Assembly (NCBI GenBank): GCA_041483195.1
Contig: JBGPFC010000019.1
Coordinates: forward strand, 2,853 to 66,852
Source: Candidatus Eiseniibacteriota bacterium
GTDB taxonomy: Bacteria > Eisenbacteria > RBG-16-71-46
Direction: 5' to 3'
Length of the DNA stretch: 64,000 nt
Shown here one piece after another: positions 2,763-18,551 of the stretch (the first letter of the stretch is position 1; each line of letters begins with the position of its first letter). A program made the position numbers and the translations under genes. Below the pieces are notes generated by a model. The model had not been told where the DNA came from and did not search any database. It saw only the letters and a list, made by a program, of their open reading frames with translations.

Positions 2763-2807
2763 ACGACGATGGGCGGACGAAGCCAACTCTCGAAGGAGAA
2801 ATCGGAG

Positions 2808-3299: not shown

Positions 3300-3370
3300 C
3301 GGGTCGGCCGAGCGAGTGTCGCCCATGCGTCATGCCTGAGCAGCCTCGCTGCAACGAAGAGGAGGAGATC

Positions 3371-3718
3371 ATGAAGCCCACGATCGTTTCGCTCGTACTG
3401 CTCGCCCTGCTGGGGACCGGCACCGCCGCTTCGGCGGCCAGCCCCGGGGGGACGGAGCGGCGCATCCCGGTCACGGTCACCTCGAAGGGATTCGAACCGG
3501 CCTCGATCCCGGTGAGGGTGGGTCAGCCCGTGGTGCTCGTCGTGACCCGGACGACCGACCGCACCTGCGCGAAGGAGTTCGTGATTGCGGATCGGAAGAT
3601 CAGAAAGGCGCTGCCCCTCAACCGTGCCGTCGAGATTCGCTTCGTCGCGGAGAAGCCGGGCACCGTGCGCTTCGCATGTGGCATGGACATGGTCGCGGGC
3701 AAGCTCGTGGTGGAGTGA
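3371..3718 (+). CDS. small exported cupredoxin-like (EfeO-N/cupredoxin_1-like) protein
   Basis: GGAGGAG RBS before the ATG at 3371. Signal peptide MKPTIVSLVLLALLGTGTAASA. Beta-sandwich-like VTVTSKGFEPASIPVRVGQPVVLVVTR...FACGMDMVAGKLVV. Confidence 0.6.
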   Translation: MKPTIVSLVLLALLGTGTAASAASPGGTERRIPVTVTSKGFEPASIPVRVGQPVVLVVTRTTDRTCAKEFVIADRKIRKALPLNRAVEIRFVAEKPGTVRFACGMDMVAGKLVVE

Positions 3719-4860
3719 TGACCCGCGGGGCGGCTGAGATCGCGGCACCGCCCGATCGCACCCCACCGCTGGGGCGCCTTGAGCGGCGCAGATTTCAAGT
3801 GCTCGTACTCTGTGCGGTCGCGGTCGCCGTGCTGCTGTTCCTGCATTACACGGCCGCGCTTCACCGGCTCGGGGTTCACGACGCGCTCCGGCGCCTGTTC
3901 TACCTGCCCGTCATCGTCGCGGCCATCGCGGCAGGCAGCCGCGGCGGTCTCTCGATCGCCGGATTCGCGGTGCTGGGATTCCTGCCTCACCTGCGACAGC
4001 TTGCCCGGACGGATGACCGCGTGTTGGATTCGGTCTTCGAGCTGGTCCTCCTCCTCGTCGTAGGGGCACTGGTGGGTGCGTACGCGGACGCGAGCCGCCG
4101 CGCCCGTGCGCAAGCTGCTGAATCGGGCCGGCTCGCCGCGCTCGGGGAAACGGGCCTCGCGTTGATGGCGCAGACGGAGGGTCCGCTGGCGGCCATCGAG
4201 GGCCAGGCCGAATCCCTGACCGCGATCATGGACCCGGTGCGCAATAGTGCGGTCACGTTCGCGGCCCGCGTCATCCGCGAGGAGGCGGCGAGAGCGCGGC
4301 AGTTGCTCAGCGATCTGGGTGAGATCGCAAGAGTCTCGGAGCATCACGCGGATCGCATCGACCTGGCCCCGCTCGTTGTTGGCGTCGTCAAGGACGTGGC
4401 GCATGCCCGACGCGACGGCCGGCGCGTCGTCCTGATTCCCTCCGCCAGGGCTTCCCGCATCGAGGCGGACCGCCGAGCCCTGGCCTTCTCGCTGCGAACG
4501 CTGCTCTTCGGCCTGCTCGACACCATTCCGCCACCGGGATGGTTGGAGGTGCGCCTGGCGGAACGTTCCCCCGGTGAAGCCGTGATCGAACTCGGAATCT
4601 TCTCGACGGGCGAGGCGCTGCCGGACATGGAAGAGAGCCTGACTCGCGTGTTCGGGGCCCGCGTCGGGGAGTATCGATTCCGGCAGGTGCTTTGCGTCCG
4701 TCTGCTCGGCTCGCTCGGGGCCACCGTGCGTTTCGATTCGATCTCACCGCGTCATGCGCGAATCCTCGTCGGCTTCCGGGAGGTGCCGGCGAAGGCCGCG
4801 AACGGTCATCCGGTGAGCCATCCGGAGCCGAGCCGTGTCCGACAGGGAGCGGGCGGGTGA
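3718..4860 (+). CDS. membrane-bound degenerate histidine-kinase-like protein (phospho-acceptor His replaced by Gln)
   Basis: The start overlaps the previous stop (GTGATGA). About four N-terminal TM helices. The DHp-like segment RLAALGETGLALMAQTEGPL aligns to the usual RLAALGE..AGVAHEIRNPL, but with Q152 (CAG at 4171-4173) in place of His. The N/G1/G2 ATP-binding boxes are not recognisable. Confidence 0.55.
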   Translation: MTRGAAEIAAPPDRTPPLGRLERRRFQVLVLCAVAVAVLLFLHYTAALHRLGVHDALRRLFYLPVIVAAIAAGSRGGLSIAGFAVLGFLPHLRQLARTDDRVLDSVFELVLLLVVGALVGAYADASRRARAQAAESGRLAALGETGLALMAQTEGPLAAIEGQAESLTAIMDPVRNSAVTFAARVIREEAARARQLLSDLGEIARVSEHHADRIDLAPLVVGVVKDVAHARRDGRRVVLIPSARASRIEADRRALAFSLRTLLFGLLDTIPPPGWLEVRLAERSPGEAVIELGIFSTGEALPDMEESLTRVFGARVGEYRFRQVLCVRLLGSLGATVRFDSISPRHARILVGFREVPAKAANGHPVSHPEPSRVRQGAGG

Positions 4861-6011: not shown

Positions 6012-6785
6012 ATGAGATCCATGATTCGCGCCGCCGTACCGATGGTGCTGGGCGCCGGGCTGTTCGCGCTCCCGCTGTTCGCGAAGAACGCGGCGCCCCC
6101 GGACAGCGTCGAGCCGAAGCTCAATCCGCAGCAGGAACGGGGCGCGCGCGCGTTCCTCGCGTACTGCGCGTTGTGCCACGGCAACAACGGCTCGGGCGAT
6201 GGTCCGCTCGCGGCGCAGCTCGGCAAGCGGACCGGCGCGCCGCCGGTCCACCTCGACGATGCCTCGCGGATCGACCGGCTGGGACGCGCGGGGGTGCGCA
6301 CCGTGGTGACGCAGGGTGGGGGCCACACCGGGCGCTCCAACCTGATGCCGACGTGGGGGGAGCGCCTTTCGCCGGCCGTGGTGTCGGACATCGTCGAATA
6401 CGTGATGGTGCTGCCGCGGCTCAGCCCGTCGGTTCCACCGGCGACCGTCGCGAAGTATCTGAACGCCCCGCCCGGAAGCGCGCAGGCCGGGCGCGAGCAC
6501 TTCGTGCACTTCTGCTCGGGGTGCCACGGACCCCAGGGCCGCGGCGACGGATTCAACGCGGACTCGCTGTACGCGCGCAACCGCATCCGGCCGCGCAATC
6601 TCACGGACTCGACGTACTTCGCGCAGAAGACCGACGCGGTGCTCTACGAGACCATCGCGCTCGGCGGCGGACACATGGGGAAGTCGATGTACATGCCGGG
6701 CTGGACCTACCGCCTCTCGCCCGGGCAGATCAAGGATCTGGTGAGCTACGTGCGCGCCATCTCGCACACCGCCCCGCAGCCCTAG
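6012..6785 (+). CDS. periplasmic diheme c-type cytochrome (paralog of 25895-26650)
   Basis: Signal peptide MRSMIRAAVPMVLGAGLFALPLFA. Two CxxCH motifs (CALCH, CSGCH), each followed by a GGGHxG(R/K)S..MP.W motif. Clearly homologous to the product of 25895-26650. Confidence 0.8.
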   Translation: MRSMIRAAVPMVLGAGLFALPLFAKNAAPPDSVEPKLNPQQERGARAFLAYCALCHGNNGSGDGPLAAQLGKRTGAPPVHLDDASRIDRLGRAGVRTVVTQGGGHTGRSNLMPTWGERLSPAVVSDIVEYVMVLPRLSPSVPPATVAKYLNAPPGSAQAGREHFVHFCSGCHGPQGRGDGFNADSLYARNRIRPRNLTDSTYFAQKTDAVLYETIALGGGHMGKSMYMPGWTYRLSPGQIKDLVSYVRAISHTAPQP

Positions 6786-6845
6786 TCGCGGCGCGGGCGC
6801 CGGGCGCGTGATGCCTCCCGGCTCGATCGTCGCGCGCCTCGAGAC

Positions 6846-7256
6846 TCAGGCGGTGTGCCGCGCCCGTCTGCCGAGCGCGGCGTGGACGGCGTCCAGGATC
6901 TCTTCGGGCTCAGCTGGCTGCACGGCGTAGTAGACCGGACGCAGCTCCCGCACCACGCGCTCCTGATTGAGCGAGCCCGCGCACGCAATCAACACCAGCG
7001 GGACCTCGGGCGCCACGCGCTTCAGCAGCTGGAGCACCGCGAGATCCGACGGGCACTGTGCGCGCAACTCGTACACCACGACCTCGGGCCGGCGGCGAAC
7101 GACCTCCTCGATCACCGACTCGACCGCGGGACAGCAGTGCAGCTCGAACTCGGGCGGGATGAGCGCGGCGCGCAGCGTGCTCGCGGTGGAACGGTCGCAT
7201 GCGCACAGCACGAGGCGCGGCGCGGAGCGATCGTGGCGGATGGCGGGAGACGTCAT
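6846..7256 (-). CDS. stand-alone pseudo-receiver (CheY-like fold; Asp-to-Glu at the phospho-acceptor, Lys-to-Arg at beta5)
   Basis: ATG at 7256 (MTSPAIRHDRSAPRLVLCACDRS...). The beta3 strand reads VVVYELRAQ instead of ...D...; beta4 is LVLIACAG; beta5 is LRPVYY instead of KP. Paralog of 29613-30113. Confidence 0.6.
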   Translation of the reverse strand: MTSPAIRHDRSAPRLVLCACDRSTASTLRAALIPPEFELHCCPAVESVIEEVVRRRPEVVVYELRAQCPSDLAVLQLLKRVAPEVPLVLIACAGSLNQERVVRELRPVYYAVQPAEPEEILDAVHAALGRRARHTA

Positions 7257-7874
7257 GGCGCGTTCCCGGGGAAGCGGCCCGCAGGGCGCGGGCGGCGGCA
7301 ATAAATGAGGCGAGGCGTCACGTTCAAGACCCCCCACGGCGGAGAAGGATGCGTTCGCCCTTCCCGCCAAGTCACCCGTGACTACCTCGCCCCGACCGCA
7401 ACCGGGGATCCTCCCCGGCAATCACTGATGGGTGGGTGCGACCTTCACCCTGACCGTCCGGCGTCTCGCGAGCGCCTGGACGGCCCCCTCGATGTCCCGG
7501 TGACGGAGCACCCACCACTTCCGTTCGCGATTCGTACTGCAACGCGCGTGCCTGCCGGTGGGAGGCCCCGCGTTCGGCCGCAATCCGTTGCGCCTCAACG
7601 CCGCGAGGCGTGTGGGCGGTGGGCGTCGCGCGGTCTGCCTGCCGCCAGACCTGACAGGTTGGACGGTGAAACATGTAGTCGTGTCAGCCACGACCGACGA
7701 GGCGGGGCATTCCGCGCCCGCGCGCGGCGGGCGCGGCTGTTCCCGGCGGGTCGCGCGCGCGGCCGGGCCGGCCTCCGCCAAAGTGTCATCGCGCTGACGC
7801 GATGGCATGAACTGAAGTAGACCTGCGGGGGACCGCTCCGGGGCCGCGACGCCGCGCCCGGGGCTAAGCGTTAG

Positions 7875-7904
7875 TTGATAGTCAACTTGTGGCGGTCGTA
7901 TGGT
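7875..7904 (+). promoter_or_regulatory. candidate sigma70-type promoter for the mtrA operon (TTGATA-N18-TATGGT), overlapped by the palindrome AGTTGA-TAG-TCAACT (7873-7887)
   Basis: Read directly in an AT-richer patch of the 950-bp intergenic region, about 300 nt upstream of the mtrA ATG. Hexamers score 5/6 and 4/6. Confidence 0.3.
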
Positions 7905-8209
7905 GCAGGCTGAAGTCGAAGGGCGACGGCGCGCATGTTGCAGTCAACCCCTGCTGACAGGTGTCGGTTTCTCGAACGACACACCCGCATCGCGCGCGAA
8001 CGGAAGGCTCCTCACGCGTCGCCCGCACATCGGCGCTCATCATCGAGAAGTCGCTCCTGCTGATCGCAACGTTACGGGTTCACCCGGGGAACGTGGCCCG
8101 ATGCTCGTGCCCCCCCGGCGTCGGATGAGCACCAAGCCGAAGATTCACTCGCCCGAGGCCACACGCATGGCGGAAGGATCCGCGGCCGGCCCGAGGATGG
8201 AGGACCGCA

Positions 8210-9133
8210 ATGAGACGAGTTCCGATTCTAGTCGTCGCCTTGTTCACGGTCTCGGCGCTTGTGTGGATGGGTGCGCGAGCGCCCGCGTCTTCGCAAGGCC
8301 CGGCGAAGTACGTGGGGGGCGAGACCTGCAAGAACTGTCACGAAGCCGAGTGGAACGCCTTCGAGAAATCGCCTCACGGCCGCGCCGAGGCGGACCAGAA
8401 GGTGGTCGCGGACGTCGTGGGCTGCGAGTCCTGTCACGGACCGGGCTCCGAGCACGCGGAGGCCGGCGGCGACAAGGACAGCCCCGGCTTCAAGACCATC
8501 CGCAATCTCAAGAGCATGGACGCCGAGGCCGCGAGCGAGGTCTGCGCCTCCTGCCACAAGACGGGCGAGCAGTTCTACTGGAAACAGAGCAACCACTCGC
8601 ACGCCGGCGTCGGCTGCCTGAACTGCCACAGCATCCATCATCCGCTGAACGTGGGCGCCGGGCCGATGCTGGTGTCCGCCGACGTGAATCACCTCTGCCT
8701 CACGTGCCACAAGGACAAGCGCGCCGCGCTCGCGCGCTCCGCGCACATGCCGCTGCGCGAGGGCAGCATGACCTGCGCGGACTGCCACAACCCGCACGGC
8801 TCGATGGGCCCGCACATGCTGCGCGCCGCGACCAACAACGAGCTCTGCTACAAGTGCCACGCCGACAAGCGCGGCCCGTTCCTGTGGGAGCACGCGCCGG
8901 TGCGCGAGAACTGCCTGAACTGCCACCAGCCGCACGGCTCGAACAACGACAAGGTGCTGTCGGGCAAGCGGCCGTACCTGTGCCAGCGCTGCCACATCGG
9001 CACGCGCCACCCGAGCACGCTGTACGACAACCCCGACCTCGTGGGGAACCGGTTGTTCAACCGGTCCTGCACCAACTGCCATTCGCAGATTCACGGGTCG
9101 AATCATCCCTCTGGCAAGTACTTCGAGCGATAG
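8210..9133 (+). CDS. mtrA: periplasmic decaheme c-type cytochrome, MtrA/DmsE/PioA/MtoA family
   Basis: RBS GGATGGAGG, signal peptide, and ten CxxCH motifs in 307 aa (CKNCH, CESCH, CASCH, CLNCH, CLTCH, CADCH, CYKCH, CLNCH, CQRCH, CTNCH). Family-typical C-terminus CTNCHSQIHGSNHPSGKYFER. Confidence 0.85.
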   Translation: MRRVPILVVALFTVSALVWMGARAPASSQGPAKYVGGETCKNCHEAEWNAFEKSPHGRAEADQKVVADVVGCESCHGPGSEHAEAGGDKDSPGFKTIRNLKSMDAEAASEVCASCHKTGEQFYWKQSNHSHAGVGCLNCHSIHHPLNVGAGPMLVSADVNHLCLTCHKDKRAALARSAHMPLREGSMTCADCHNPHGSMGPHMLRAATNNELCYKCHADKRGPFLWEHAPVRENCLNCHQPHGSNNDKVLSGKRPYLCQRCHIGTRHPSTLYDNPDLVGNRLFNRSCTNCHSQIHGSNHPSGKYFER

Positions 9134-9143
9134 GAGGACGCCC

Positions 9144-11318
9144 ATGACGACGCTGAGATTTGCAGTCGCGATCGCGCTCGCGGGCGGCCTGGCCGTGAAC
9201 GCTCCCAGCTCCCCCGCGCGGGCCGCCGAAGGCGACGCCACGTTCGGAGGACAGTGGTGGAATCAGACCGCCCCCGACGCGAAGTACCAGGAGTTCCGGC
9301 AGGTGTCGCGCGGCGGCTTCCTCGAGAATTTCGTGATCCGCGAGTGGTCGGGCCGCACCAGCGTGGCGCTGTGGGGGGCGAACGCGCTCCACGGAGACCA
9401 GGCGGCGAAGCTCACCGTGGCGGACGGCGTTCGCTGGCGGGCGGACTTCGGCTACACCCAGATCCCTCACCAGTTCAGCTTCACGTCGCGCTCGCCATGG
9501 TCGCAGAGCTCGCCCGGGTCGTTCACGCTGCCGGACCTGATCCAGTCCGCCAACCAGACCACGCCGGCCAACTACTCGACGAACATGCGCGACGTGCTGG
9601 CCAACTCGCCGCTCATCGGGCTCGGTTTCGACACCGACATCTCGTCGGCCCGTCTCCGGGCGCGGCCCACGCGCGACTGGCAGCTCGATGCGCGAGGCAC
9701 GGTGCGCGAGCGCTCGGGTCAGAAGCCGTACGCCATGACGTTCGGGTTCAGCACCGCGATCGAGATCCCGGAGCCCATCGACCAGCGCATGGTCGACGCC
9801 GACGTCATCGCGAACTACCAGCACAAGGACATGACCGCGCAGGTGGACGTTGGCGTCTCCACGTTCACGAACCACATCAGCACGCTGCGCGTGGACAACC
9901 CGAAGCGCGCCACCGACGTGGTCGGCGGCGACGGGCCCCGGGTGGGAGCGCTCGACCTCTACCCCGACAACCAGGTGATTCGCGGCACGCTCGCGCTCGG
10001 CTATGAACTCCCGAAGCGCACGTCGGTGACCGCGACGGTCGGCATGAGCCAGGGCAAGCAGGACGACAAGTTCCTGCCGTACACCAACAATTCGGCGCTC
10101 GCCCAGAGCCGGATCGATTCGCTCCCGGTACGCAGCCTCGACGGCAAGGCGGTGCAGCTGAACGGAGACGTGCGGCTCTCGACCCGCCCGATCGAGGGGG
10201 TGGAGGGCGCGCTGCGCTTCCATTACACCGACTACGACAACCAGACCGAGGAGCACAATTTCAGCGGCCAGTCGCCATACGACGTCTCGTGGCAGCCGTA
10301 CGCCATCCACCCCAATCACGTGCTCAGCAACAAGCAGCTGGTGTCGGGCGGCGATCTCGACTACGCGGTGACGCCGCAGATCAAGCTCGGCGGGACGGTC
10401 GAGTACCGCACCCGCGACCGCACCGAGCGCGAGGTCGAGAAGGACAACGAGACCGTCTACGGCGGTCACGCGCGAATGCACCTGATGGACAACGTCCAGC
10501 TCCAGGGACGCTACACGCACGGCGACCGCAAGCTCGACGCTTTCAACAACGACGAGTACATGATCTACGTGGCGCGCACGCGCACCCCCGTCACCGGCAT
10601 CTACGACTCGCTGGTGCAGGGCGAGCAGACCGCGCTCCGGCGCTTCGACGTCGCGAACCGCGTGCAGGACATGGCGAGCGGCGGCGTGTCGTATGCGCTG
10701 GGCGAGCGCGCGGACCTGAGCGCGAGCTACGCCTACCTGAAGAACGACTACAAGGACTCGCAGTTCGGACTTCAGAAGGAGACTCAGCAGACCGTGGCCA
10801 CCGACGCGACGATTCACGTCAACGAGCGCCTGGACCTGAACGGCGGTTACGGCTACGGCGTGACCGAGACCAACCAGGCGTCGCGGGTGTCGAACGCCGC
10901 GACGCTCAGCACCCTGGCGAACAACAACTGGTTCGCGCTCTTGAAGGACACCGATGTCTTCTACTTCGCGGGCTTCGAGTGGACGCCGAAGGAGAAGCTC
11001 ACGCTGGTCGGCAACTACCAGCTGAGCCGCGACCTCTCTCTGTTCGATTTCACCGATCCGCTCAACACCTCGATCGACCTCCCGGGCACCATCTATCGCC
11101 GGCACGAGGCGCAGCTCGACGCGCGCTGGCAATGGATCAAGAGCACCGTGATCATCGGGCGCTGGGGCTGGGAGGAGTACGACTCGATCGACTGGGCCAC
11201 CAACAACGTGCCGTACGTCTTCCCGCTGGTGGGCGCCTCGACCGGCGTGTTCCTCGGCGACAGCTCGCAGGGGTACAAGGCGCATCGCCTGGCGCTGCTG
11301 GTGAAGCACAGCTTCTGA
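9144..11318 (+). CDS. mtrB: MtrB/PioB-family outer-membrane beta-barrel (decaheme-associated porin)
   Basis: Starts 10 nt after mtrA. Signal peptide ...SSPARAAEG. 724 aa with alternating beta-strand-like composition rich in Y/G/D/T/N, and a C-terminal aromatic residue (LLVKHSF). Its size and its position next to the MtrA homolog fit the family. Confidence 0.75.
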   Translation: MTTLRFAVAIALAGGLAVNAPSSPARAAEGDATFGGQWWNQTAPDAKYQEFRQVSRGGFLENFVIREWSGRTSVALWGANALHGDQAAKLTVADGVRWRADFGYTQIPHQFSFTSRSPWSQSSPGSFTLPDLIQSANQTTPANYSTNMRDVLANSPLIGLGFDTDISSARLRARPTRDWQLDARGTVRERSGQKPYAMTFGFSTAIEIPEPIDQRMVDADVIANYQHKDMTAQVDVGVSTFTNHISTLRVDNPKRATDVVGGDGPRVGALDLYPDNQVIRGTLALGYELPKRTSVTATVGMSQGKQDDKFLPYTNNSALAQSRIDSLPVRSLDGKAVQLNGDVRLSTRPIEGVEGALRFHYTDYDNQTEEHNFSGQSPYDVSWQPYAIHPNHVLSNKQLVSGGDLDYAVTPQIKLGGTVEYRTRDRTEREVEKDNETVYGGHARMHLMDNVQLQGRYTHGDRKLDAFNNDEYMIYVARTRTPVTGIYDSLVQGEQTALRRFDVANRVQDMASGGVSYALGERADLSASYAYLKNDYKDSQFGLQKETQQTVATDATIHVNERLDLNGGYGYGVTETNQASRVSNAATLSTLANNNWFALLKDTDVFYFAGFEWTPKEKLTLVGNYQLSRDLSLFDFTDPLNTSIDLPGTIYRRHEAQLDARWQWIKSTVIIGRWGWEEYDSIDWATNNVPYVFPLVGASTGVFLGDSSQGYKAHRLALLVKHSF

Positions 11319-11379
11319 TAGGATTCGGCGGACGGGGCGAGGCGGCCCCGTCCGCGCATCACACCCGAAGGCGAACGCC

Positions 11380-11850
11380 ATGAGCGAACCCACCGCGACG
11401 ACGCCCGCGCCGGCGCAGGGAGCATCCCTGGGCCGGCGCACCTTTCTGACCCGGCTCAGCCAGGCGTTCCTGAGCCTGTGGGGGATCGGCACCGCGGCCG
11501 CGGTCGCCGCCTATCTGCGCGCCCCCGACCGCGGCGAGCGCATCGCCGAGCGCATCGTGCGGGTCGGCATGCTCGACGATCTTCCGGTGGGCGAGGCGCG
11601 ACTGGTGCCGCACGGCACGACGCCCTTCTACGTGGTGCGCATGGACGCGACGCGGCTGGTCGCGCTCTCGGCGGTGTGCACGCACGTGCGCTGCATCCTC
11701 AACTACGATCGCGAGCGCAAGGGCCTCGTGTGCCCATGCCACGACGGGCGCTTCGATCTCTCCGGAAACGTGCTCTCCGGCCCGCCCCCGCGCGCGTTGC
11801 CGTCGTACGAGGTCGCGGTGCGGGCTGGCGAAGTGTTCGTGCATCTATGA
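11380..11850 (+). CDS. Rieske [2Fe-2S] protein with a Tat signal (module A)
   Basis: Twin-arginine motif GRRTFLTRL. Cluster-binding boxes CTHVRC and CPCHDGRF. Confidence 0.85.
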   Translation: MSEPTATTPAPAQGASLGRRTFLTRLSQAFLSLWGIGTAAAVAAYLRAPDRGERIAERIVRVGMLDDLPVGEARLVPHGTTPFYVVRMDATRLVALSAVCTHVRCILNYDRERKGLVCPCHDGRFDLSGNVLSGPPPRALPSYEVAVRAGEVFVHL

Positions 11851-12980
11851 GCGGCGCACCGGACCGCGAACCACCCCGCACCGATCGCGGCGTCATCGGC
11901 TGGCTCGAGCGGCGCGTCAACCTCACCGAGATCTTCTCGTTCGTCTCGCACTTCGGCTTGGTCTTCACGCCGGTGGACAGCTCGCGGCCGCTGCGCGAGA
12001 CCCTGCGCGACGTCGCGCGCCAGCCGATCCCGGACTTCGCGCGCTGGCCGCGCGTGCTCGGGCTGCTCGCCGCGATCGGGTTCGGCATCGAGGCGCTCAC
12101 CGGCGTGCTGCTCGCGTTCTACTACCGCCCCACCCCCGACGCGGCGTTCGAGAGCACGCGCACCATCGTGCGCGACCTGCCGCTCGGCTGGTTCATCCAC
12201 CAGATGCACGCCTGGGGCGCGTGGCTGCTGGTCGCGATCGTGGTGGTGCGCATGCTGCGGCTGTTTTGGGACGGCCTCTACCGCGCGCCGCGCGAAGTGC
12301 TCTGGATGACGGCGGTCGGGCTCGCGTGGCTGGTGCTGCAGGCCGACTTCACGGGCCACCTGCTCACGTGGGACGCGCACTCGTACTGGTCGACGGTGCG
12401 CGGCATGGAGGTGGTGTTCGCGCTGCCGCTGGTCGGGCCGGTGCTCGCGTTCCTGCTCGGCGGCCGCGTCGTGAACGACGACGTGCTGATCCGCTTCTAC
12501 GTGCTGCACGTGATGGTGCTGCCGCTGGCCTACGCCGCGCTCATCTACCTCACGTTCGCGACCCTGCGCCGCGTGGGGCTGAGCCCGGCGCCCACCGCCG
12601 TGACCACCGGGACCAGCACCTTCCGCGATCATCTCTACTCGATGACGGTCGCGAACGTCCTGGTATTCGGCGTGCTCGTGTCGCTCGCGGTCCTGCTCCC
12701 GTTCCGCTTCCTCGCGGCGGCCGATCCCTACACGACCCCCGGCGGCGTGCGGCCGCCGTGGTACATGCTGGCGCCCTACGCCGTGCTGCGCATGGCGCCG
12801 GGGCCCGCCTGGCTGTGGGGCCTGCTGCTGGTGGCGATCGCGTTCGCGGTGCTGCTGCTTCCGTTCTGGACGCGCGCCGAAGACGAGCGCGCGCGGACCC
12901 GCATCCGCCTCGGAAGCCTCGCGGCTTTCGCGGCCTGGATCGCGCTCAGCATCGCGGCGCTGTTCCTGGATCGGAAATGA
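11847..12980 (+). CDS. cytochrome b (b6+subunit IV-type fusion), atypical: only one of the two bis-His heme-b ligand pairs is present (module A)
   Basis: ATGA overlap with the Rieske gene. Aligns to the paralog at 28054-29130 (WFIHQMHAWGAWLL vs [14 protein letters not shown]; RFYVLHVMVLP vs [11 protein letters not shown]). R135 (CGC 12249-12251) and T236 (ACG 12552-12554) sit where the second His of helices B and D is expected. The Qo motif reads PPWY rather than PEWY. Confidence 0.8.
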   Translation: MSGAPDREPPRTDRGVIGWLERRVNLTEIFSFVSHFGLVFTPVDSSRPLRETLRDVARQPIPDFARWPRVLGLLAAIGFGIEALTGVLLAFYYRPTPDAAFESTRTIVRDLPLGWFIHQMHAWGAWLLVAIVVVRMLRLFWDGLYRAPREVLWMTAVGLAWLVLQADFTGHLLTWDAHSYWSTVRGMEVVFALPLVGPVLAFLLGGRVVNDDVLIRFYVLHVMVLPLAYAALIYLTFATLRRVGLSPAPTAVTTGTSTFRDHLYSMTVANVLVFGVLVSLAVLLPFRFLAAADPYTTPGGVRPPWYMLAPYAVLRMAPGPAWLWGLLLVAIAFAVLLLPFWTRAEDERARTRIRLGSLAAFAAWIALSIAALFLDRK

Positions 12981-14230
12981 GCGCGAGCCCCGTGGCATTC
13001 GCGCGGCGGGTCGCGCTGGTCACCCTCGTGATCGCGCCGCTCGCCGCGCTCGTCGCGCGCTCGCAGCCGGGCGCGCCCGCGCCCTCCGCGAGCCCGCCCG
13101 GGAACGCCTCGGCGGCGGCCGGCAAGTGCGGCGTGTGTCATCCGTCCGAGCGCGTGCAGTTCGAGACCAGCCTCCACGCTCGCGAGCAGGTCCATTGCAC
13201 GGCGTGTCACGGCGGGAACGACGCGAGCCTCGAGATGTCGGTCGCGCATTCGAGCGGCTTCCGGGGCCGGCCCGCGCGCAAGGACGTCCCCGCGCTCTGC
13301 GCGTCGTGTCACGCGAACGAGGCGCGCATGCGCGCATACAACCTGCCGGTGGATCAGTACGCGCTCTACCAGACCTCGGGACACGGCAAGCGGCTCGCGG
13401 CCGGCGACACGCGCGTGGCGGTCTGCTCCGATTGCCACGGGGCGCACGCCATCCTCGCGCCGAGCGATCCCGGCAGCAGCACGTTCCCGACCAACATTCC
13501 GAAGACCTGCGGCCGCTGCCACGGCGATGCCAGGCTGATGCCCGCCGGGAAGGCGGTGTTCGCGGACTACTCGAAGAGCGTTCACGCCGCGGCGCTGCTC
13601 GACAAGGGCAACCTCAAGGCGCCGACCTGCGTGAGCTGTCACGGCGTGCACGGCGCCGCGCCCCCCGCGGTCGGCGACATCGACAAGGTGTGCGGCCAGT
13701 GCCACACCGCGGAGCGTCGCTACTTCACCGCCGGGGCGCATCGCCACCCCGGCTCGGGCGAGGGGCCGGAGTGCTCGTCGTGTCACGGGGCGCACGCCAT
13801 CGAGGCCGCCCGGCCGGAGCGCATCGCGACATCTTGCGCGGGCTGCCACGCGAAGGGATCGCCAGAGGCCGCGCTCGGCAGCCGCATGTGGACCGAGGTC
13901 CGGGGCGCGGCCGACGAGATCGACAAGGCGACCGCGATCGCCACCAGGGCCGACGCCGTCCCGATCAACACCGACGACTACCGCGCGCGGCTCGAGGAGG
14001 CCCGCACCTACCTGCGCGAGGCCATGCCCGCCGCGCACTCGGTCCAGGAAGAAGTGGTGGCGGGGCTCACGACGCGCGCGCGATCGGTCGCGCACGAGGT
14101 CGAGTCCGACATTCACGGCAAGCTCGGCAACCTCCACGTGCGGCGCTTCGTGCTCATCCTCTTCTGGTTCTACCTGCTGCTCACCATCCTGGTGCTGCGC
14201 CGATTCCAGAAGCGGGCGCCGAGGATCTGA
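12977..14230 (+). CDS. nonaheme c-type cytochrome with a C-terminal TM anchor (module A)
   Basis: ATGA overlap with the cytochrome b gene. Signal/anchor at the N-terminus. Nine CxxCH motifs, followed by a coiled-coil-like region and a terminal TM helix (FVLILFWFYLLLTILVL). Paralog of 26735-28057. Confidence 0.8.
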   Translation: MSASPVAFARRVALVTLVIAPLAALVARSQPGAPAPSASPPGNASAAAGKCGVCHPSERVQFETSLHAREQVHCTACHGGNDASLEMSVAHSSGFRGRPARKDVPALCASCHANEARMRAYNLPVDQYALYQTSGHGKRLAAGDTRVAVCSDCHGAHAILAPSDPGSSTFPTNIPKTCGRCHGDARLMPAGKAVFADYSKSVHAAALLDKGNLKAPTCVSCHGVHGAAPPAVGDIDKVCGQCHTAERRYFTAGAHRHPGSGEGPECSSCHGAHAIEAARPERIATSCAGCHAKGSPEAALGSRMWTEVRGAADEIDKATAIATRADAVPINTDDYRARLEEARTYLREAMPAAHSVQEEVVAGLTTRARSVAHEVESDIHGKLGNLHVRRFVLILFWFYLLLTILVLRRFQKRAPRI

Positions 14231-14231
14231 C

Positions 14232-16040
14232 GTGGCCCGGCTCTCGGGGCTAGGGCCCGACTCGTCGATCGGCCGCTGGGTCGCTCGCGCGAGCTTAGGC
14301 CGCCTCACGCCGCGCGGCCTGCGCATCGCGAGCTTCAGCGCGGCGCTCGCCCTCGGGCTCGGCCTGGTGCTGGTCGTGTTCGCGGCGCAGATGTCGTCGA
14401 CCCCCACCTTCTGCGGCTCGTGCCACATCATGAAGCCATACTACGAGTCGTGGAAACACTCGAAGCACTCGCGCATCGCGTGCGTCGAGTGCCACATCGC
14501 GCCCGGTATCACCTCCGAGATCCGCAAGAAGTACGAGGCGCTGTCGATGGTGGCGAAGTACTTCACCGGAACCTACAGCACCAACCCCTGGGTCCAGGTG
14601 GACGACGCGGCCTGCCTGCGCTGCCACGAGCGGCGGCTGCTCGAGGGCAAGGAAGTCTTCCACAACGTGCTGTTCGACCACCGGCCGCACCTCACCGAGA
14701 GCCGGCGCGGACTCAAGCTGCGCTGCACCTCGTGCCATTCCCAGATCGTGCAGGGCAGTCACATCAGCGTGACCTCCTCGACCTGCGCGCTCTGCCACTT
14801 CAAGAACCAGCCGCTCAACACCGGCACCGGCCGCTGCCTGAACTGCCACCAGATTCCCGAGCGCGTGCTCACCACGGCCGGCACGACGTTCGACCACTCC
14901 GAGGTGCGACGGCTCGACATGGACTGTCGCTCCTGCCACGCCGGCGTGGTGCGCGGCGATGGAACCGTGCCGCGCGAGCGCTGCGTGACCTGCCACAACC
15001 AGGCCGACCGCCTCGCGCGCTTCGGCGACCGGGATTTCCTGCACCGGATGCACGTCTCCGAGCACAAGGTGAACTGCATGAACTGCCACCTCGAGATCCA
15101 GCACGGCAAGGCGGAGCACCCGATGGTGGCGTCGGCCGCCGGCTGCGAGTCGTGTCACGGCGGCGGCCACTCGCCGCAGCGCGACCTCTACGCGGGCGTC
15201 GGCGGCCGCGGCGTGCCCCGCATGCCCGGGCCGATGTTCGCGGCGGGCGTGAGCTGCGAGGGCTGCCACAATCCGTCGGTGTCGGTCGCGGCATCGAACG
15301 ACCCGTTCGCCGAGCGCACGCAGAAGGCGAGCGAGGTGTCGTGCATGAGCTGCCACGGCCCCGGCTACCGCCAGATCTTCTTCGCGTGGAAGGAGGCGGT
15401 GCGCTCGCGCCTCGCCGCGATGCGCGCGCAGCTGGCGGCGAGCGCCGGTGCGATGGGCGCGAACGCGCCGGCCGCGTGGCGGGACGCGCAGTACAACGTG
15501 GCGCTGGTGGATCGCGGGAAGGGCGTGCACAACGTGAACTACGCGTACGCGCTGCTCGAGAAGGCCCACGAGCAGATGAACGAGGCGCGGCGCGCGCGCG
15601 GGCTCGCTGCGCTGTCGCTCCCGTGGACCACGGTCGCGGCCGGATCGGCCGCCGCCAACTGTCTCGGGTGCCACGCCGGGATCGAGCGCCAGGCGGGCAC
15701 GTTCGCGGGGCGCGCCTACGCGCACGCGCCGCATCTGGCCGCGAAGCTCGACTGCTCGACCTGCCATCGCCCGCACCAGGAGCGCGCGCCCGGCGAGATC
15801 GTGAAGTTCGGCGCGAACGGCTGCGTGCCATGCCATCATCCGACCGCCGCGGTGGAGGCGCCGAAGTGCATGGCGTGCCACGGCGACGTCACAGCGCGCA
15901 CCGTGACCAGCTTCCGCGGCGAGTTCTCGCACAAGGGCCACCTCGAGCAGGGGCTCGAGTGCGGAACCTGCCATCAGCCGAAGAACGGCGACCCGCGGCC
16001 CGCGAAGGAAACCTGCGCGCAGTGCCACGAGGGCGGGTGA
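14232..16040 (+). CDS. 18-heme c-type cytochrome with an N-terminal NapC/NirT/CymA-like membrane-anchored quinol-dehydrogenase module
   Basis: GTG start 1 nt after the previous stop. TM helix, then FCGSCHIMKPYYESWKHSKHSRIACVECH (NapC/NirT signature). Eighteen CxxCH motifs counted in 602 aa. Confidence 0.8.
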   Translation: MARLSGLGPDSSIGRWVARASLGRLTPRGLRIASFSAALALGLGLVLVVFAAQMSSTPTFCGSCHIMKPYYESWKHSKHSRIACVECHIAPGITSEIRKKYEALSMVAKYFTGTYSTNPWVQVDDAACLRCHERRLLEGKEVFHNVLFDHRPHLTESRRGLKLRCTSCHSQIVQGSHISVTSSTCALCHFKNQPLNTGTGRCLNCHQIPERVLTTAGTTFDHSEVRRLDMDCRSCHAGVVRGDGTVPRERCVTCHNQADRLARFGDRDFLHRMHVSEHKVNCMNCHLEIQHGKAEHPMVASAAGCESCHGGGHSPQRDLYAGVGGRGVPRMPGPMFAAGVSCEGCHNPSVSVAASNDPFAERTQKASEVSCMSCHGPGYRQIFFAWKEAVRSRLAAMRAQLAASAGAMGANAPAAWRDAQYNVALVDRGKGVHNVNYAYALLEKAHEQMNEARRARGLAALSLPWTTVAAGSAAANCLGCHAGIERQAGTFAGRAYAHAPHLAAKLDCSTCHRPHQERAPGEIVKFGANGCVPCHHPTAAVEAPKCMACHGDVTARTVTSFRGEFSHKGHLEQGLECGTCHQPKNGDPRPAKETCAQCHEGG

Positions 16041-18551
16041 TTCGGCGTATCTACTACGTTTCCTCTTCGCGCGCTCGACCACCCCGCTCATGGCGCTGCG
16101 ACACGTACTTGCGTGAGAATACATCGAGTCGCTTGCCCAGCGCGTCATCGGTGTAATCATACCTGTCGACGTTTCGCTGTTTCCGCAGGCACCGCACAAG
16201 AAAGCTCACCGGCAAGACAAGAATCATCTTCGTATGCTCCACCCACGTAGTTCGCACCCAGCCTCGATCAGATTCATCGAGCCCCTCGAGCTCGCTGCGC
16301 GTAATAAGCACACCGAATCTGCCGTACGCGCCGGTTAGGTAACTCGCAATCTGCCTAAAGTCGGCCGGCTCCAGCTTCTGAAAGTTCTTCACCTCGAACA
16401 CAACCTGCCGAGAACCATAGTCCTCAAATACTCGCCGCCAGAATCCCCTCTCCGCTGAGTTTGTTGCCACAATGTCGCGTCTTTGGGTGGCATCTGCGTT
16501 CGGCTTCAGCTCCGGATTCGCCAAGGAGCCAGCGAAGAGGATTCTGATAGCTCTGAATACCCACGCCTCAAAATCGGTGCTTCCCGCTTGCCCGAGGGGG
16601 AGCTTTGGAACCTGGGCCACCAACTGCCCCAATTGTCTAGTCCGAAGGTCTTTCAGCTCCGACACCGGCGCGGCGTTTTCGTCATCGTGCACATCGGTGA
16701 GAATTCCAGGAGCTGGTTCGTTCGCGAGAACATCAAGTGCCAGCCAGTAGCATGGATGAATGGCAGTCCTTCTTTCGGCATCGCGCGTATCCAAGGCCGA
16801 AGGAGCTCCGTCATGGCAAAAGCTAAATCTGCCGGCCGCGACATCCTCGAGTCCTATGAAACCAATCCCGTGAAGCGCCGACAAGAGATCATGCCCGCCT
16901 CCGAAGATCGCAAAGTCGCTCGCCCCCCTCTGGCTGTAGTCATCATTGCGTGCGACCGCATCCAAGTAATCCGTTCGTTGCGCAACCGTTGCAAACGCTT
17001 GCGCGCCATGGAACGAGCGGAGAACAAGCTCTATCCCGGGAAAGACGGCGTCGTACTCCTTGATGAGATCGCTTAGGCGATCCCGAGATATCTGGGTCGC
17101 GGTCGCCTCGACATCCGCTTCTACCAGCGCGGTCCGCCCGGATCTCGCCGCAGCGACAAACGCTTGATTGAGGAGAACCAAGACGTCACGCGGTCGGAGA
17201 AGGGTCTGCTGAAGGCACCTCGCAAATCCTTCACGATCTTGGAGCCCGCGTTGGGCGAATCGATTCCAGACTTTGATGTCGTTTTGGGTCGACTCTAAGC
17301 GAAGCGCGACACGAAGCCGATTCGCCACAAGATGTAGGAGGCTGCCCTCGTCCCATCTGAGGCGAAGGGTGTTGCCCTCTATGTGGCGGGAGTAGTCCAT
17401 GTCTAGGTGAGCAAGCGCGCGGAATATATTGTCCCGCATGAAGAGAATGCCGTGGATTTCGCTCTTTCGGTCCACGAAGTCCGCCATCGCCAATGCAAGG
17501 CCTCCCAAGATCGCTGTTGATTGTTGGTCGGGAGCCCAGCCCTCATCGAGCCCGTCGAACAAGAACAATGCCGGCTTGCCGGAGTCGCGGAGCACCTCAT
17601 CCACCGACTCCTGGACGTCGCCGAGGCGAAGGTTGCTGGCTACGAGGCCCGGCACTTCATGGACGTCACTTCCCTGCGCGCGGGCGCGGCCCAGGATTTC
17701 CACGCAACGCCCTATGCCGCCGAGTTTCAGAAGGGATCGGTGCTCGTTGGCATAGCCCCTCAGGAACGCTGCGCTGCTGCTCCTGTCCAATTTCCAATAC
17801 TTCAGGACACCTTCCAACACTTTGAAGAGCAGGTGCGCACGCCACGTCACGCGCATCATGGCTCGAGTGCTCTTGTAATTCCCTTCAAAGCGTCGGATCG
17901 TGCTCTGAAGCGAGAGCATTTCGTTTTCTTCTGGGTGTGAGTCGAACAGGAACCGATCGTCTCTCCGCTGAAAATGCTCGGTGATCTTCATGTACAGAGC
18001 CGTCTTGCCGGAACCGCGGCGGCCCACCACAAAATTGAAGTCGGGTGTCCCGGTCAGGGCACGAAAATCCGGCGTCTCGACAAATGCCTGGGACAGCATC
18101 ATGCCGTCGGCCTCGGCTCTACTCGCGCCGAGGATGTTTCCGAAAAGCCCCGCGACGTTGTCTGCTCTGCGCGGTAGAGTATCGGGCGTGTCCACGGATC
18201 TGAAGCTAGCACACGAAGGTGCGCGCGCGGAGACCCTATGGCTATGCCGCCTATACAGCCGCCGCCCTGCCGCATCGGCAGGGCGACAGTTCAGGCGTGA
18301 TGACTGCAGCCAGGATGGGGGGGGCAAGACTTCGAAACGCGTCTTTGCGTTGGCGGCCATCACTCGGGTAGGAGCGCCCTGCAGCGTGGCGACGCCCCGT
18401 GGAAGGCACCCGCCCAGATTGACCGGTCCGTTACCTGTACCCGAAGATCGGATGATAGCGGGCTTCCACCCGGGGGCGATCGGATCGAGTTCTTCGACCG
18501 CGTCGACACCTGCGCCGAGAATATCCTGAGAGAGATGGCGAGGTTCACACG
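16041..18551. other. low-GC (~55% vs ~70% flanks) genomic islet carrying one gene
   Basis: Hand counts on several 60-nt lines inside the region give about 55% GC. Composition changes abruptly right after the stop of the 18-heme gene (16040) and recovers before the LysE gene (18552). No integrase, tRNA or direct repeats were seen. Confidence 0.6.
16054..18102 (-). CDS. P-loop (STAND/ORC-like AAA+) ATPase fused to a C-terminal Mrr-like PD-(D/E)xK nuclease domain; candidate stand-alone defence protein
   Basis: Walker A is VVGRRGSGKTALY and Walker B is ALFLFDGLDEGW, followed by the sensor-like strand ILFMRDN and LLRPRDVLVLLNQA. The C-terminus DFEAWVFRAIRILF...RRDIVATN...QVVFEVKNFQ...RFGVLITRS fits a D...ExK restriction-endonuclease core. 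The ORF is open up to 18363 (GTG), but the Arg-rich upstream part looks non-coding, and the ATG at 18102 has GAGG 11 nt upstream. Confidence 0.7.
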   Translation of the reverse strand: MMLSQAFVETPDFRALTGTPDFNFVVGRRGSGKTALYMKITEHFQRRDDRFLFDSHPEENEMLSLQSTIRRFEGNYKSTRAMMRVTWRAHLLFKVLEGVLKYWKLDRSSSAAFLRGYANEHRSLLKLGGIGRCVEILGRARAQGSDVHEVPGLVASNLRLGDVQESVDEVLRDSGKPALFLFDGLDEGWAPDQQSTAILGGLALAMADFVDRKSEIHGILFMRDNIFRALAHLDMDYSRHIEGNTLRLRWDEGSLLHLVANRLRVALRLESTQNDIKVWNRFAQRGLQDREGFARCLQQTLLRPRDVLVLLNQAFVAAARSGRTALVEADVEATATQISRDRLSDLIKEYDAVFPGIELVLRSFHGAQAFATVAQRTDYLDAVARNDDYSQRGASDFAIFGGGHDLLSALHGIGFIGLEDVAAGRFSFCHDGAPSALDTRDAERRTAIHPCYWLALDVLANEPAPGILTDVHDDENAAPVSELKDLRTRQLGQLVAQVPKLPLGQAGSTDFEAWVFRAIRILFAGSLANPELKPNADATQRRDIVATNSAERGFWRRVFEDYGSRQVVFEVKNFQKLEPADFRQIASYLTGAYGRFGVLITRSELEGLDESDRGWVRTTWVEHTKMILVLPVSFLVRCLRKQRNVDRYDYTDDALGKRLDVFSRKYVSQRHERGGRAREEET

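Follow-up and report, generated by a model that had tools for sequence, protein, structure and literature searches.

An MtrAB-type conduit adjoins a Rieske/cytochrome b module lacking canonical heme bH ligands in Candidatus Eisenbacteria

Gene layout of the locus

The window, a 64,000-nucleotide stretch of DNA from Candidatus Eisenbacteria, a soil bacterium, contains the six + strand open reading frames (ORFs) considered here, with spacings of 10, 61, −4 (ATGA), −4 (ATGA) and 1 nt. They form two modules: MtrAB (8210–11318) and a four-gene Rieske module (11380–16040). The first encodes an MtrA/MtoA/PioA-type periplasmic decaheme cytochrome with a Sec signal (8210–9133; 307 amino acids) and an outer-membrane barrel with the MtrB/PioB fold and 26 strands (9144–11318; 724 amino acids). 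The second encodes a Tat-exported Rieske 2Fe–2S subunit (11380–11850; 156 amino acids), a fused cytochrome b/subunit IV with about eight transmembrane helices (11847–12980; 377 amino acids; PF00033 and PF00032), a nonaheme cytochrome c in the cytochrome c1 position with a Sec signal (12977–14230; 417 amino acids), and an 18-heme cytochrome with an NrfH-type head (14232–16040; 602 amino acids). Profile matches and motif counts agree with the gene identities, the gaps and the total of 37 c-hemes (10 + 9 + 18 CxxCH) given in a sequence-only reading of this DNA, and the six ORFs lie at the coordinates stated there. The gene set is no product of chance: the same six genes appear in independent gene calls on three public contigs, and a check of gene-order conservation found the six-gene order in the diverged relatives L008, L035 and L076.

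Upstream on the + strand, a diheme c-type cytochrome of cbb3/c4-like type (6012–6785; PF13442 and PF00034) is a possible accessory; its homologues adjoin the Rieske module or MtrAB in L001, L002, L008, L012, L035 and L077. The window also holds a clade II nosZ, ccoNO and two CbcL-like quinol oxidoreductases, forming a respiratory island. A second, canonical Rieske/cytochrome b complex lies on the − strand (26735–29558), 12 kb from the module. Its cytochrome b keeps all four heme ligands (HHHH) and a PEWY Qo motif, its Rieske protein has the G-Y signature, and the complex adjoins sigma-54 two-component genes and nosZ. The proposed tie of the six genes to the neighbouring nos and cbb3 genes therefore fits this second complex better.

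A perfect hairpin of 11 G+C base pairs and a loop of 6 nt (11328–11355, + strand) lies in the 61-nt spacer that separates the barrel gene from the Rieske gene. The 76-nt stretch around it folds at −33.5 kcal/mol (z = −2.0), and L035 retains about 8 of the 11 stem base pairs. The hairpin has no U tract, no canonical terminator call and no Rfam match. It could serve as an attenuator or mRNA-stability element and may separate transcription of the two modules, so a single operon for all six genes is unproven. Within the Rieske module, overlapping stop and start codons point to translational coupling of its four subunits; within MtrAB, the 10-nt gap also speaks for coupling.

An MtrAB-type conduit without a surface decaheme

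The decaheme cytochrome scores 271.1 bits against the DmsE-family model TIGR03508 (cutoff 192.2), covering profile positions 1–258 of 258, and its residues 32–307 match MtrA of the solved Mtr complex (6R2Q_A) over the full length (E = 2.9e-64). It carries ten CxxCH motifs, a hydrophobic N-terminal signal and an IHGSNHPSG tail. Its assignment to the MtrA/DmsE family is thus borne out. The barrel likewise proved to be of the MtrB/PioB type: it matches PF11854 (MtrB_PioB) at 280 bits (cutoff 23; profile positions 38–635 of 635), although its 216.3 bits against TIGR03509 fall under the curated cutoff of 240.05. The AlphaFold2 model of the barrel (pLDDT 88.6) has 26 long strands, and its best Foldseek match in the PDB is 6R2Q_B (E = 6.4e-40; TM 0.80/0.89), the runner-up reaching a TM of 0.39. 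The barrel gene follows the decaheme gene in every relative in which sequence upstream of the barrel is present.

Among the window ORFs with at least two CxxCH motifs (eight multiheme ORFs), none encodes a surface decaheme of the OmcA/MtrC type. The sole TIGR03507 match in the window, at 24 bits (cutoff 209), falls on a CbcL-like protein. The conduit is therefore of the MtrAB/MtoAB/PioAB type, a decaheme sheathed by a barrel without a surface MtrC, as had been proposed.

Loss of the heme bH ligands in cytochrome b

We aligned the module cytochrome b to cytochrome b6 of solved structures and compared 37 family members with paralogues. H121 and H221, the heme bL ligands, are retained, and four independent alignments put Arg135 and Thr236 where heme bH normally has its ligands. 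The helix-B histidine is replaced by arginine in 37 of 37 module cytochromes b. In a wider comparison of 150 representatives drawn from 1.84 billion proteins, the top ~20, which are family members, have the same arginine, and all four histidines are intact in the 121 cytochromes b that are more distant. At the helix-D position, threonine is found in Eisenbacteria and H, T, S, N, Q or G across the family, a variation to be expected if the heme is gone. As judged from these alignments, the cytochrome b has lost the canonical bis-His site for heme bH, so the module is not the standard Rieske/cytochrome b quinol oxidoreductase that the sequence-only reading had taken it to be. We infer that heme bH is absent from the module cytochrome b. 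Two conserved cytoplasmic-side histidines, His35 (in Eisenbacteria only) and His262, could give non-canonical heme bH ligation. The Qo motif is PPWY, conserved in the family, not PEWY or PDWY.

The Rieske subunit matches PF00355 and has CTHVRC and CPCH-D-G-R-F boxes with the disulfide cysteines, along with a GRRTFL twin-arginine motif. Its signature is of the low-potential G-F type, and both the boxes and this signature are kept in every locus having the Rieske gene. By the published signature rule, G-F corresponds to about 150 mV (PMC4122944). At a potential near +150 mV, a Rieske centre is poorly suited to reduce low-potential multihemes, which counts against the explanation that we favour below.

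Multiheme subunits of the Rieske module

Nine CxxCH motifs and a C-terminal transmembrane anchor are found in the nonaheme protein in every locus having its gene. Over its full length it shares 37% identity with the 9-heme subunit of the second, canonical complex (E = 3e-63).

The 18-heme protein has an N-terminal transmembrane helix (residues 29–57) and matches PF03264 (NapC/NirT) over residues 39–173 at 46.6 bits (cutoff 24.1). It stays under the equivalog cutoffs for NrfH (TIGR03153, 58.6 versus 134.2 bits) and NapC (TIGR02161, 18.4 versus 310.6 bits). Its N terminus aligns to NrfH of D. vulgaris (2J7A_C), with CGSCHIM against CTSCHIM at heme 1. Together, the profile match, the helix and the NrfH alignment uphold the proposed CymA/NapC-type N terminus. 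All but one of the loci with the 18-heme gene keep 18 CxxCH motifs and a CxxCH[ILV]M motif.

Conservation of the Rieske module and its link to MtrAB

The four-gene Rieske module, with heme counts fixed at 9 + 18, occurs in Eisenbacteria, Acidobacteriota, Latescibacterota and Gemmatimonadota, often in the absence of MtrAB. In Eisenbacteria, no MtrAB lies within about 7–10 kb upstream of the module in at least eight distinct loci, and MtrAB relatives occur without the module in L041, L044–L048, L051, L077 and L078. Because each is found without the other, it is the four-gene Rieske module that forms the conserved unit, and not the six genes, which had been read as one unit.

MtrAB nevertheless recurs beside the module. 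It lies directly upstream in the window and in L008, L010, L035, L039, L042 and L076, all from Eisenbacteria, and 5–7 kb away in L012 and L021. In Blastocatellia-type loci, a diverged MtrA-like decaheme and an MtrB-fold barrel precede the module in six of six cases; no Pfam model detects this barrel, which has an MtrB-like fold (TM 0.64/0.69). In one locus (L080), the Blastocatellia-type conduit adjoins a canonical type of Rieske/cytochrome b complex instead. Given the recurrent adjacency in both groups, a functional link of the conduit to the module is plausible on genomic context. The partnership suggested by the sequence-only reading is thus sustained in that adjacency recurs, but the arrangement is labile and many loci have either part alone. 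The two CbcL-like oxidoreductases or the second Rieske/cytochrome b complex could serve MtrAB instead; this, with the labile linkage, the spacer hairpin and the possible non-canonical ligation of heme bH, also weighs against our favoured explanation.

A proposed route from the quinone pool to the cell exterior

The position of MtrAB beside the Rieske module suggests that the quinone pool may be hard-wired to the cell exterior by a route that works without a classical Q cycle. The module would be an inner-membrane complex of four subunits that descends from a Rieske/cytochrome b complex. It would oxidise menaquinol, the substrate that we infer, at the periplasmic side; a classical Q cycle would be precluded because no transmembrane path leads from bL through bH to Qi. 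The NrfH-type head of the 18-heme subunit would be of the quinol-dehydrogenase type. Electrons would then enter a wire of 27 c-hemes, predicted to be long enough to span much of the periplasm and to deliver them to MtrA at the outer membrane, from where MtrA/MtrB would pass them to acceptors outside the cell, for example Fe(III)/Mn(IV) minerals or humics. We regard this Q-cycle-free oxidation of menaquinol, wired through 27 c-hemes and MtrAB to the outside, as the best explanation and give it an even chance of being right. The outward direction is presumed, since multiheme chains are reversible and flow cannot be read from sequence.

Electrons could also run inwards. MtrAB would then act like MtoAB/PioAB, with Fe(II), Mn(II), reduced humics or minerals outside the cell as electron sources, and the 27-heme wire would carry them to the quinone pool via Qo and/or the NrfH-type site, or to periplasmic NosZ/cbb3 via the diheme cytochrome. 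The missing MtrC, as in MtoAB/PioAB, fits uptake, as do the clade II nosZ and ccoNO in the window, and the bc1 complexes of Acidithiobacillus ferrooxidans, in which electrons are known to run in reverse from Fe(II), have the same PPWY at Qo (PMC4122944). Eisenbacteria are also among the taxa with iron-cycling genes in FeGenie-type surveys, and Cyc2 homologues have been reported from Eisenbacteria metagenome-assembled genomes. However, what drives reverse flow through a Rieske/cytochrome b complex is the action of the membrane potential on the bH–bL path, and with the heme bH site lost, uphill quinone reduction would be without its usual driving force. The MtrA/MtrB sequences give no direction, and a carbon-fixation or lithotrophy context was not seen in the window. 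We consider uptake unlikely.

We think it similarly improbable that the two modules are neighbours without a dedicated partnership, in which case the Rieske module would serve these phyla as a general complex for distributing electrons in the periplasm. MtrAB would simply have been inserted into the island or shuffled within it, and would receive its electrons from other quinol oxidoreductases or from soluble cytochromes. Many genomes and phyla have the module but no MtrAB, and MtrAB occurs without the module; both speak for such independence, as do the spacer hairpin, the two CbcL-like genes nearby, the L080 conduit next to a canonical-type complex, and the rearrangement of flanking genes (czc/RND efflux, GalT and diheme c) between relatives. 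It is hard to square with same-strand, short-gap adjacency in at least seven distinct Eisenbacteria loci, found again in all six Blastocatellia-type loci even though their barrels have diverged past HMM recognition. Moreover, contigs of equal size (19470, 6942, 6900, 11333, 20187, 7651 and 5751) appear in both homologue lists, pointing to possible further co-occurrences.

Least probable is an electron-bifurcating variant, in which quinol oxidation at Qo would send one electron through the Rieske centre to the 9-heme subunit and the other through heme bL, left without bH to pass to, into the 18-heme subunit, giving two separate exits at different potentials; it would suit two distinct anchored multiheme subunits, one per end of the Qo bifurcation, heme counts of strictly 9 and 18, the loss of bH but not bL ligands, and an NrfH-type head that would set hemes at the periplasmic membrane surface, but it is purely structural speculation, assumes insulation between the two heme chains, and the head could instead re-reduce quinone or merely anchor the wire. 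The corresponding broad proposal, that the module represents a class of Rieske/cytochrome b complex not recognised before, which has abandoned the Q cycle and bifurcates electrons into two wires, the low-potential branch leaving through MtrAB-fold conduits, is only a shade less doubtful; if true, quinol-driven electron bifurcation would be wired to the cell exterior in Eisenbacteria, Acidobacteriota and relatives.

Comparison with known systems

Like Shewanella MtrCAB, Sideroxydans MtoAB and Rhodopseudomonas PioAB, the conduit pairs a decaheme of the DmsE/MtrA family with a 26-strand barrel of the MtrB/PioB fold, and it shares with MtoAB and PioAB the two-gene form without MtrC. Unlike those conduits, it belongs to the phylum Eisenbacteria, and its barrel has only 17% identity to MtrB. 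The inner-membrane partner encoded beside it is a Rieske/cytochrome b derivative, whereas those systems use CymA, or PioC/HiPIP with bc1 encoded elsewhere. The 18-heme subunit has the N-terminal transmembrane helix of NrfH/CymA, followed by the CxxCH-x-M heme-1 motif and a second heme motif, but it holds 18 hemes, not 4–5, and its gene comes last in a Rieske/cytochrome b operon.

At the gene-cluster level the arrangement has a precedent, contrary to what had been claimed: in Geobacter sulfurreducens, the extHIJKL conduit is contiguous with extMNOPQS (Cbc6), which encodes two cytochromes, of 12 and 10 hemes, besides a Rieske protein and cytochrome b (PMC5877670). ExtHIJKL with Cbc6/CbcMNOPQR (GSU2940–2930) thus has the same architecture, with conduit genes running on into those for a Rieske protein, a cytochrome b and two large multiheme cytochromes, and as a precedent it speaks for our favoured explanation. 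By published sizes and heme counts, on which this comparison rests rather than on sequences (PMC5877670), ExtM has 12 hemes in 68 kDa and ExtN 10 hemes in 47 kDa, against 18 in 602 and 9 in 417 amino acids here. The Geobacter conduit consists of the ExtI porin, ExtKL and a rhodanese instead of MtrAB, its cytochrome b is split (ExtP and ExtQ) and not fused, and its gene order differs. The ExtP model NF040969 gives 155.5 bits on the module cytochrome b (cutoff 290) and a higher 192.8 on the canonical paralogue.

The petI bc1 complex of Acidithiobacillus ferrooxidans, an acidophile, is a dedicated bc-type complex tied to an outer-membrane iron oxidase pathway, as the module may be to MtrAB, and has the PPWY Qo motif, but it is a canonical two-b-heme complex with cytochrome c1 and is not encoded beside the outer-membrane component. 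With bc1/b6f complexes, including the second complex in the window, the module shares the Rieske CxH...CxCH boxes with disulfide cysteines, the cytochrome b/subunit IV fold, a P-x-W-Y Qo-type motif and a C-terminally anchored c-type subunit. It differs from them in Arg and Thr at the heme bH ligand positions, PPWY in place of PEWY, G-F in place of G-Y, and an additional subunit, the fourth, which combines 18 hemes with an NrfH-type head.

A parallel to the ligand loss is found in Pyrobaculum, whose cytochrome b lineage also systematically lacks a heme bH His ligand, which Kao and Hunte (2014) read as loss of heme bH (PMC4122944). That lineage is archaeal and unrelated and, unlike the Eisenbacteria module, has no multiheme partners. 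The same survey dropped all sequences lacking any of the four histidines (PMC4122944), so the module-type family would have been filtered out of it. What is new here is that a widely conserved Rieske/cytochrome b complex with 27 additional c-hemes always has Arg instead of the helix-B ligand of heme bH, joined in Eisenbacteria by Thr at the helix-D position.

The six genes form an MtrAB conduit and a Rieske module

The sequence-only reading had described six same-strand genes at 8210–16040 that join a porin–cytochrome conduit to a Rieske/cytochrome b module, and had taken them as one operon; the six genes, all on the forward strand, are confirmed, and a single transcript for them is possible. 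All six open reading frames were recovered with exactly the same boundaries and with intergenic gaps of 10, 61, −4, −4 and 1 nt. Direct counting gave 10, 9 and 18 CxxCH motifs in the decaheme, 9-heme and 18-heme proteins, respectively; the IHGSNHPSG tail and the GRRTFL twin-arginine motif were both present, and transmembrane helices lie C-terminally in the 9-heme protein and N-terminally in the 18-heme protein. Family searches placed the decaheme in the DmsE/MtrA family (271 bits against a cutoff of 192) and matched the Rieske protein, the N- and C-terminal domains of cytochrome b and NapC/NirT (PF03264). The barrel matched PF11854 MtrB_PioB with 280 bits, whereas its TIGR03509 score of 216 fell just below the cutoff of 240. 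The decaheme aligned over its full length with MtrA of the solved Mtr complex (6R2Q_A, E 2.9e-64), and the barrel, modelled with AlphaFold2 (pLDDT 88.6), has 26 long strands, its top structural match being by far MtrB (6R2Q_B; TM 0.80/0.89, next match 0.39). The window has a G+C content of ~70%; GCA_041496185.1 and a JGI metagenome contain the same sequence.

The 61-nt spacer between the barrel and Rieske genes contains a perfect 11-bp G+C hairpin (11328–11355) that lacks a U tract, and most of the stem (~8 bp) is retained in the related locus L035. Scanning this spacer between the two modules revealed neither a terminator nor a promoter of canonical type; a search for the sigma-54 −24/−12 pattern returned 16 matches compared with 21 in shuffled sequence, and no Rfam element matched within 6700–16200. 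Upstream of the mtrA-like gene, a stretch of ~0.8–0.95 kb (7422–8209) is unusually long for one without a convincing gene; it has no Rfam match and holds a single weak sigma-70-like site at 7875–7904.

The Rieske module is conserved across phyla

Close homologs of the module cytochrome b number in the hundreds. We compared the neighbourhoods of homologous loci (handles beginning with L) in public contigs and in a search that took a single genome for each species, locating proteins by tblastn and HMMs. A recurring gene order emerged, namely Rieske, cytochrome b, a multiheme protein of ~410 aa and a NapC-like multiheme protein of ~600 aa. This order was found in Eisenbacteria with cytochrome b identities of 58–80% and, at 40–46% identity, in Blastocatellia, Polarisedimenticolia, Aminicenantes and Latescibacterota, as well as in one metagenome-assembled genome (MAG) attributed to Gemmatimonas phototrophica and in several MAGs that bear the label 'uncultured Clostridia'. 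In essentially every locus with the respective gene, box 2 of the Rieske protein has the sequence CPCH-x-G-x-F, the third protein is anchored at its C terminus and contains exactly 9 CxxCH motifs, and the first motif of the fourth protein is CxxCH[ILV]M; the fourth protein carries 18 CxxCH motifs throughout, with one exception at 17. The conserved unit is the four-gene Rieske module (11380–16040), and the MtrAB conduit (8210–11318) is more variable. The potential of a Rieske centre can be predicted from the residues that follow CxCH by two and four positions, G-F indicating a low value of ~150 mV (PMC4122944). The module Rieske protein is of the G-F type in all loci.

The 9-heme protein of the module and the 9-heme subunit of a second, canonical Rieske/cytochrome b complex in the window are full-length paralogs with 37% identity; the module protein therefore takes the cytochrome c1 position. 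The 18-heme subunit is the addition relative to the canonical complex. Its N terminus can be aligned with NrfH (2J7A_C), a menaquinol dehydrogenase; the alignment takes in the CxSCHIM motif, the Met of which ligates heme 1 in NrfH.

Arginine occupies a heme bH ligand position in the module cytochrome b

Alignment of the module cytochrome b to cytochrome b6 of solved structures showed that the heme bL (bp in b6f) ligands are kept as H121 and H221, and that the heme bH (bn) ligand positions are occupied by Arg135 and Thr236. Pairwise alignment of the two cytochrome b paralogs of the window gave the same ligand result. When all locus-derived sequences were aligned with MAFFT, the helix-B bH position was Arg in 37 of 37 module cytochromes b; at the helix-D position, Eisenbacteria have Thr and most other lineages His. 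Paralogous cytochromes b encoded near many loci, including that at 28054–29130 (− strand) in the window, have all four His intact. When 1.84 billion representative proteins were searched with a profile, the outcome pointed the same way: the best-scoring ~20 of the 150 representatives listed have His-Arg-His-(H/T/S/N/Q) and a PPWY-like Qo motif, and 121 of the 150, the more distant ones, have the canonical four His with PEWY or PDWY. PPWY is also the Qo motif of A. ferrooxidans bc1 complexes (PMC4122944).

A helix-B position that is always Arg, together with a partner position that has decayed in several sublineages, fits the loss of heme bH, as far as sequence can indicate; non-canonical heme ligation is possible. 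His35 and His262 were considered as replacement ligands and are unsupported: equivalents of His262 are common in canonical cytochromes b, and His35 is found only in Eisenbacteria, other sublineages without His236 being also without His35. The four His of cytochrome b have been regarded as invariable, with Pyrobaculum as a natural exception, and a survey of cytochromes b removed sequences without any one of the four (Kao and Hunte 2014; PMC4122944). Because sequences short of four His were discarded in this way, the Arg-type cytochrome b family has probably been overlooked so far.

MtrAB-fold conduits recur beside the module

MtrAB lies directly 5′ of the module in the window and in L008, L010 (at the contig end), L035, L039, L042 and L076, and 5–7 kb upstream of it in L012 and L021. 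Eight or more further Eisenbacteria loci, all distinct, have no MtrAB within ~7–10 kb upstream of the module, and MtrAB relatives without the module occur in L041, L044–L048, L051, L077 and L078. Contigs of identical length in the homolog lists of the two suggest about seven further candidate co-occurrences of module and MtrAB. A heavy-metal RND efflux set (AcrB/CzcA-like, HMBD protein and cupredoxin) and a GalT-like gene, found at 1–4000 in the window and also in L021 and L076, are recurrent yet rearranged neighbours of the Eisenbacteria MtrAB/Rieske cluster.

In Blastocatellia-type loci, five same-strand genes precede the module. They encode a Crp-type regulator, an MtrA-like decaheme with ~36% identity to that of the window, a secreted protein of ~700 aa with no Pfam match, a multiheme cytochrome of ~300 aa and a CbcL-like protein, a fusion of a multiheme cytochrome with a cytochrome b561 domain. 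The conduit stands upstream of the module in all six Blastocatellia-type loci (6/6); the same conduit triad occurs alone in L079 and adjoins a canonical Rieske/cytochrome b complex in L080. A database search returned more than 900 homologs of the ~700-aa protein, all annotated 'hypothetical'. Family members, such as that at 2842–4983 in L027 and those in L024, L025, L028, L032, L037, L079 and L080, invariably have as flanking neighbours an MtrA-like decaheme and a multiheme cytochrome of ~300 aa. The AlphaFold2 model of the protein is a large barrel (pLDDT 80.4) with MtrB as its best PDB match (6R2Q_B, TM 0.64/0.69; TonB-dependent receptors ~0.4). From this model, the family appears to be an unannotated porin–cytochrome conduit family of Blastocatellia with an MtrB fold. 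Comparison of the barrels of Eisenbacteria and Blastocatellia did not support homology at the sequence level (hhalign probability 14%, and neither HMM cross-detects the other family); the proposed relationship is one of predicted fold.

A further conduit adjoining a bc-type complex lies at 1–6620 of L064, an unrelated metagenome contig: genes for a CymA-like 5-heme transmembrane protein, an MtrA-like decaheme and a barrel of 800 aa resembling MtrB diverge from those for a canonical Rieske/cytochrome b pair and a monoheme c-type cytochrome.

As conduits and Rieske/cytochrome b complexes are repeatedly co-located, a functional link between them is favoured, even if co-location does not prove an exclusive partnership. 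That the modules merely share a place within a respiratory island seems unlikely to us.

The respiratory island contains a second, canonical complex

The window is a respiratory island. A diheme cytochrome c gene is found at 6012–6785, and a gene for an Sll1717-family P-loop ATPase at 16054–18363 (− strand; NF047389, 228 bits; a weak anti-phage model match). The G+C content of the ATPase gene is markedly lower (58% against ~70%), and relatives L003, L008 and L076 carry at this site a trio of 244-aa multiheme, 4Fe-4S and NrfD proteins. The ATPase gene is probably a horizontally acquired insertion. Two CbcL-like proteins, each with a periplasmic multiheme part fused to an FdnI/HydC/b561-type membrane domain, are encoded at 19662–22544 (− strand, 19 CxxCH) and 23667–25898 (+ strand, 13 CxxCH). 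They are paralogs (32% identity, E 8e-88), and their genes diverge around that of a c554-like pentaheme cytochrome (22655–23335, − strand). A CbcL-like homolog is also encoded directly 5′ of the Rieske gene in Acidobacteriota-type and Gemmatimonas loci.

In the canonical complex (26735–29558, − strand), the Rieske protein has CACH-N-G-M-Y, a G-Y signature; the cytochrome b retains all four His and carries PEWY, and the 9-heme subunit is C-terminally anchored. This complex adjoins a sigma-54 two-component pair and nosZ, which encodes a Sec-dependent (clade II) NosZ (33279–35909, + strand; TIGR04246, 875 bits) and has nosD downstream; a fused CcoN–CcoO cbb3 subunit is encoded at 42399–44672 (+ strand), with ccoG and a gene for a copper P-type ATPase after it. 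The tie to N2O or O2 respiration that had been suggested for the six genes is more natural for the canonical complex, which probably serves these processes.

Each Rieske/cytochrome b cluster also has nearby one of two paralogous small proteins (6846–7421 and 29613–30272, both − strand; 36% identity over 108 residues, E 4e-21), and the one scanned had no Pfam match. From their sequences, they may be candidate regulators resembling degenerate receiver domains.

A proposed electron route

The sequence data establish the parts, their motifs and folds, their conservation and their neighbourhood, and from these the electron flow is inferred. Our preferred reading, to which we give about even chances, is that the Rieske module works without a Q cycle and oxidises menaquinol on the periplasmic side. 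Electrons would then enter 27 c-hemes anchored on the inner membrane, and this 27-heme wire would reach MtrA inside the MtrB barrel, joining the quinone pool to extracellular redox partners. The same hardware could run inward, taking up electrons from Fe(II), Mn(II) or a cathode; however, bc complexes normally run in reverse by way of the bH–bL path, which weakens this reading and leaves it improbable. We regard a true bifurcation with two exits as very unlikely. Should the proposed working of the module hold, it would be a Rieske/cytochrome b machine that needs no Q cycle, and a candidate site at which electrons enter or leave the inner membrane during extracellular electron transfer in soils. 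Its genes would then be additional markers with which to survey metagenomes for iron and manganese cycling.

Discussion

How electrons leave the quinone pool of bacteria that respire or oxidise minerals is known mainly from Shewanella and Geobacter. Here, MtrAB-fold conduits and a Rieske module are repeatedly neighbours in phyla that are abundant in soil (Eisenbacteria and Blastocatellia). This non-canonical module is of more interest than the juxtaposition of the six genes. Our analysis defines a rigidly conserved, cross-phylum complex of four subunits: a G-F Rieske protein, an Arg-substituted cytochrome b, a 9-heme cytochrome and an NrfH-headed 18-heme cytochrome. In the part of the open literature covered, we found no description of this four-subunit complex, of the Arg substitution in its cytochrome b or of an MtrAB/MtoAB-type conduit adjoining a Rieske/cytochrome b complex; MtoA, MtoB and Rieske came up together only in a general survey.

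The interpretation offered with the sequence-only reading is partly supported: a functional link is favoured, and the statement that no precedent was known is wrong at the level of the gene cluster. In Geobacter sulfurreducens, the porin–cytochrome genes extHIJKL (GSU2940–2936) are contiguous with extMNOPQS (GSU2935–2930), which encode ExtM (12 hemes, 68 kDa), ExtN (10 hemes, 47 kDa), the Rieske protein ExtO, the cytochrome b ExtP, the membrane protein ExtQ, and ExtS (PMC5877670). The latter genes are Cbc6/CbcMNOPQR, the physiological role of which 'remains unknown' according to a 2026 review (PMC13591261). Judged by published description, the subunit sizes of the Geobacter cluster resemble those of the module. 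ExtP is the top NCBIfam match of the module cytochrome b, yet the canonical paralog scores higher on this model, and we therefore make no claim of orthology; the likeness would be one of architectural analogy. The pairing of a porin–cytochrome conduit with a bc-type quinol oxidoreductase is already known, and the six-gene cluster is a further variant of it.
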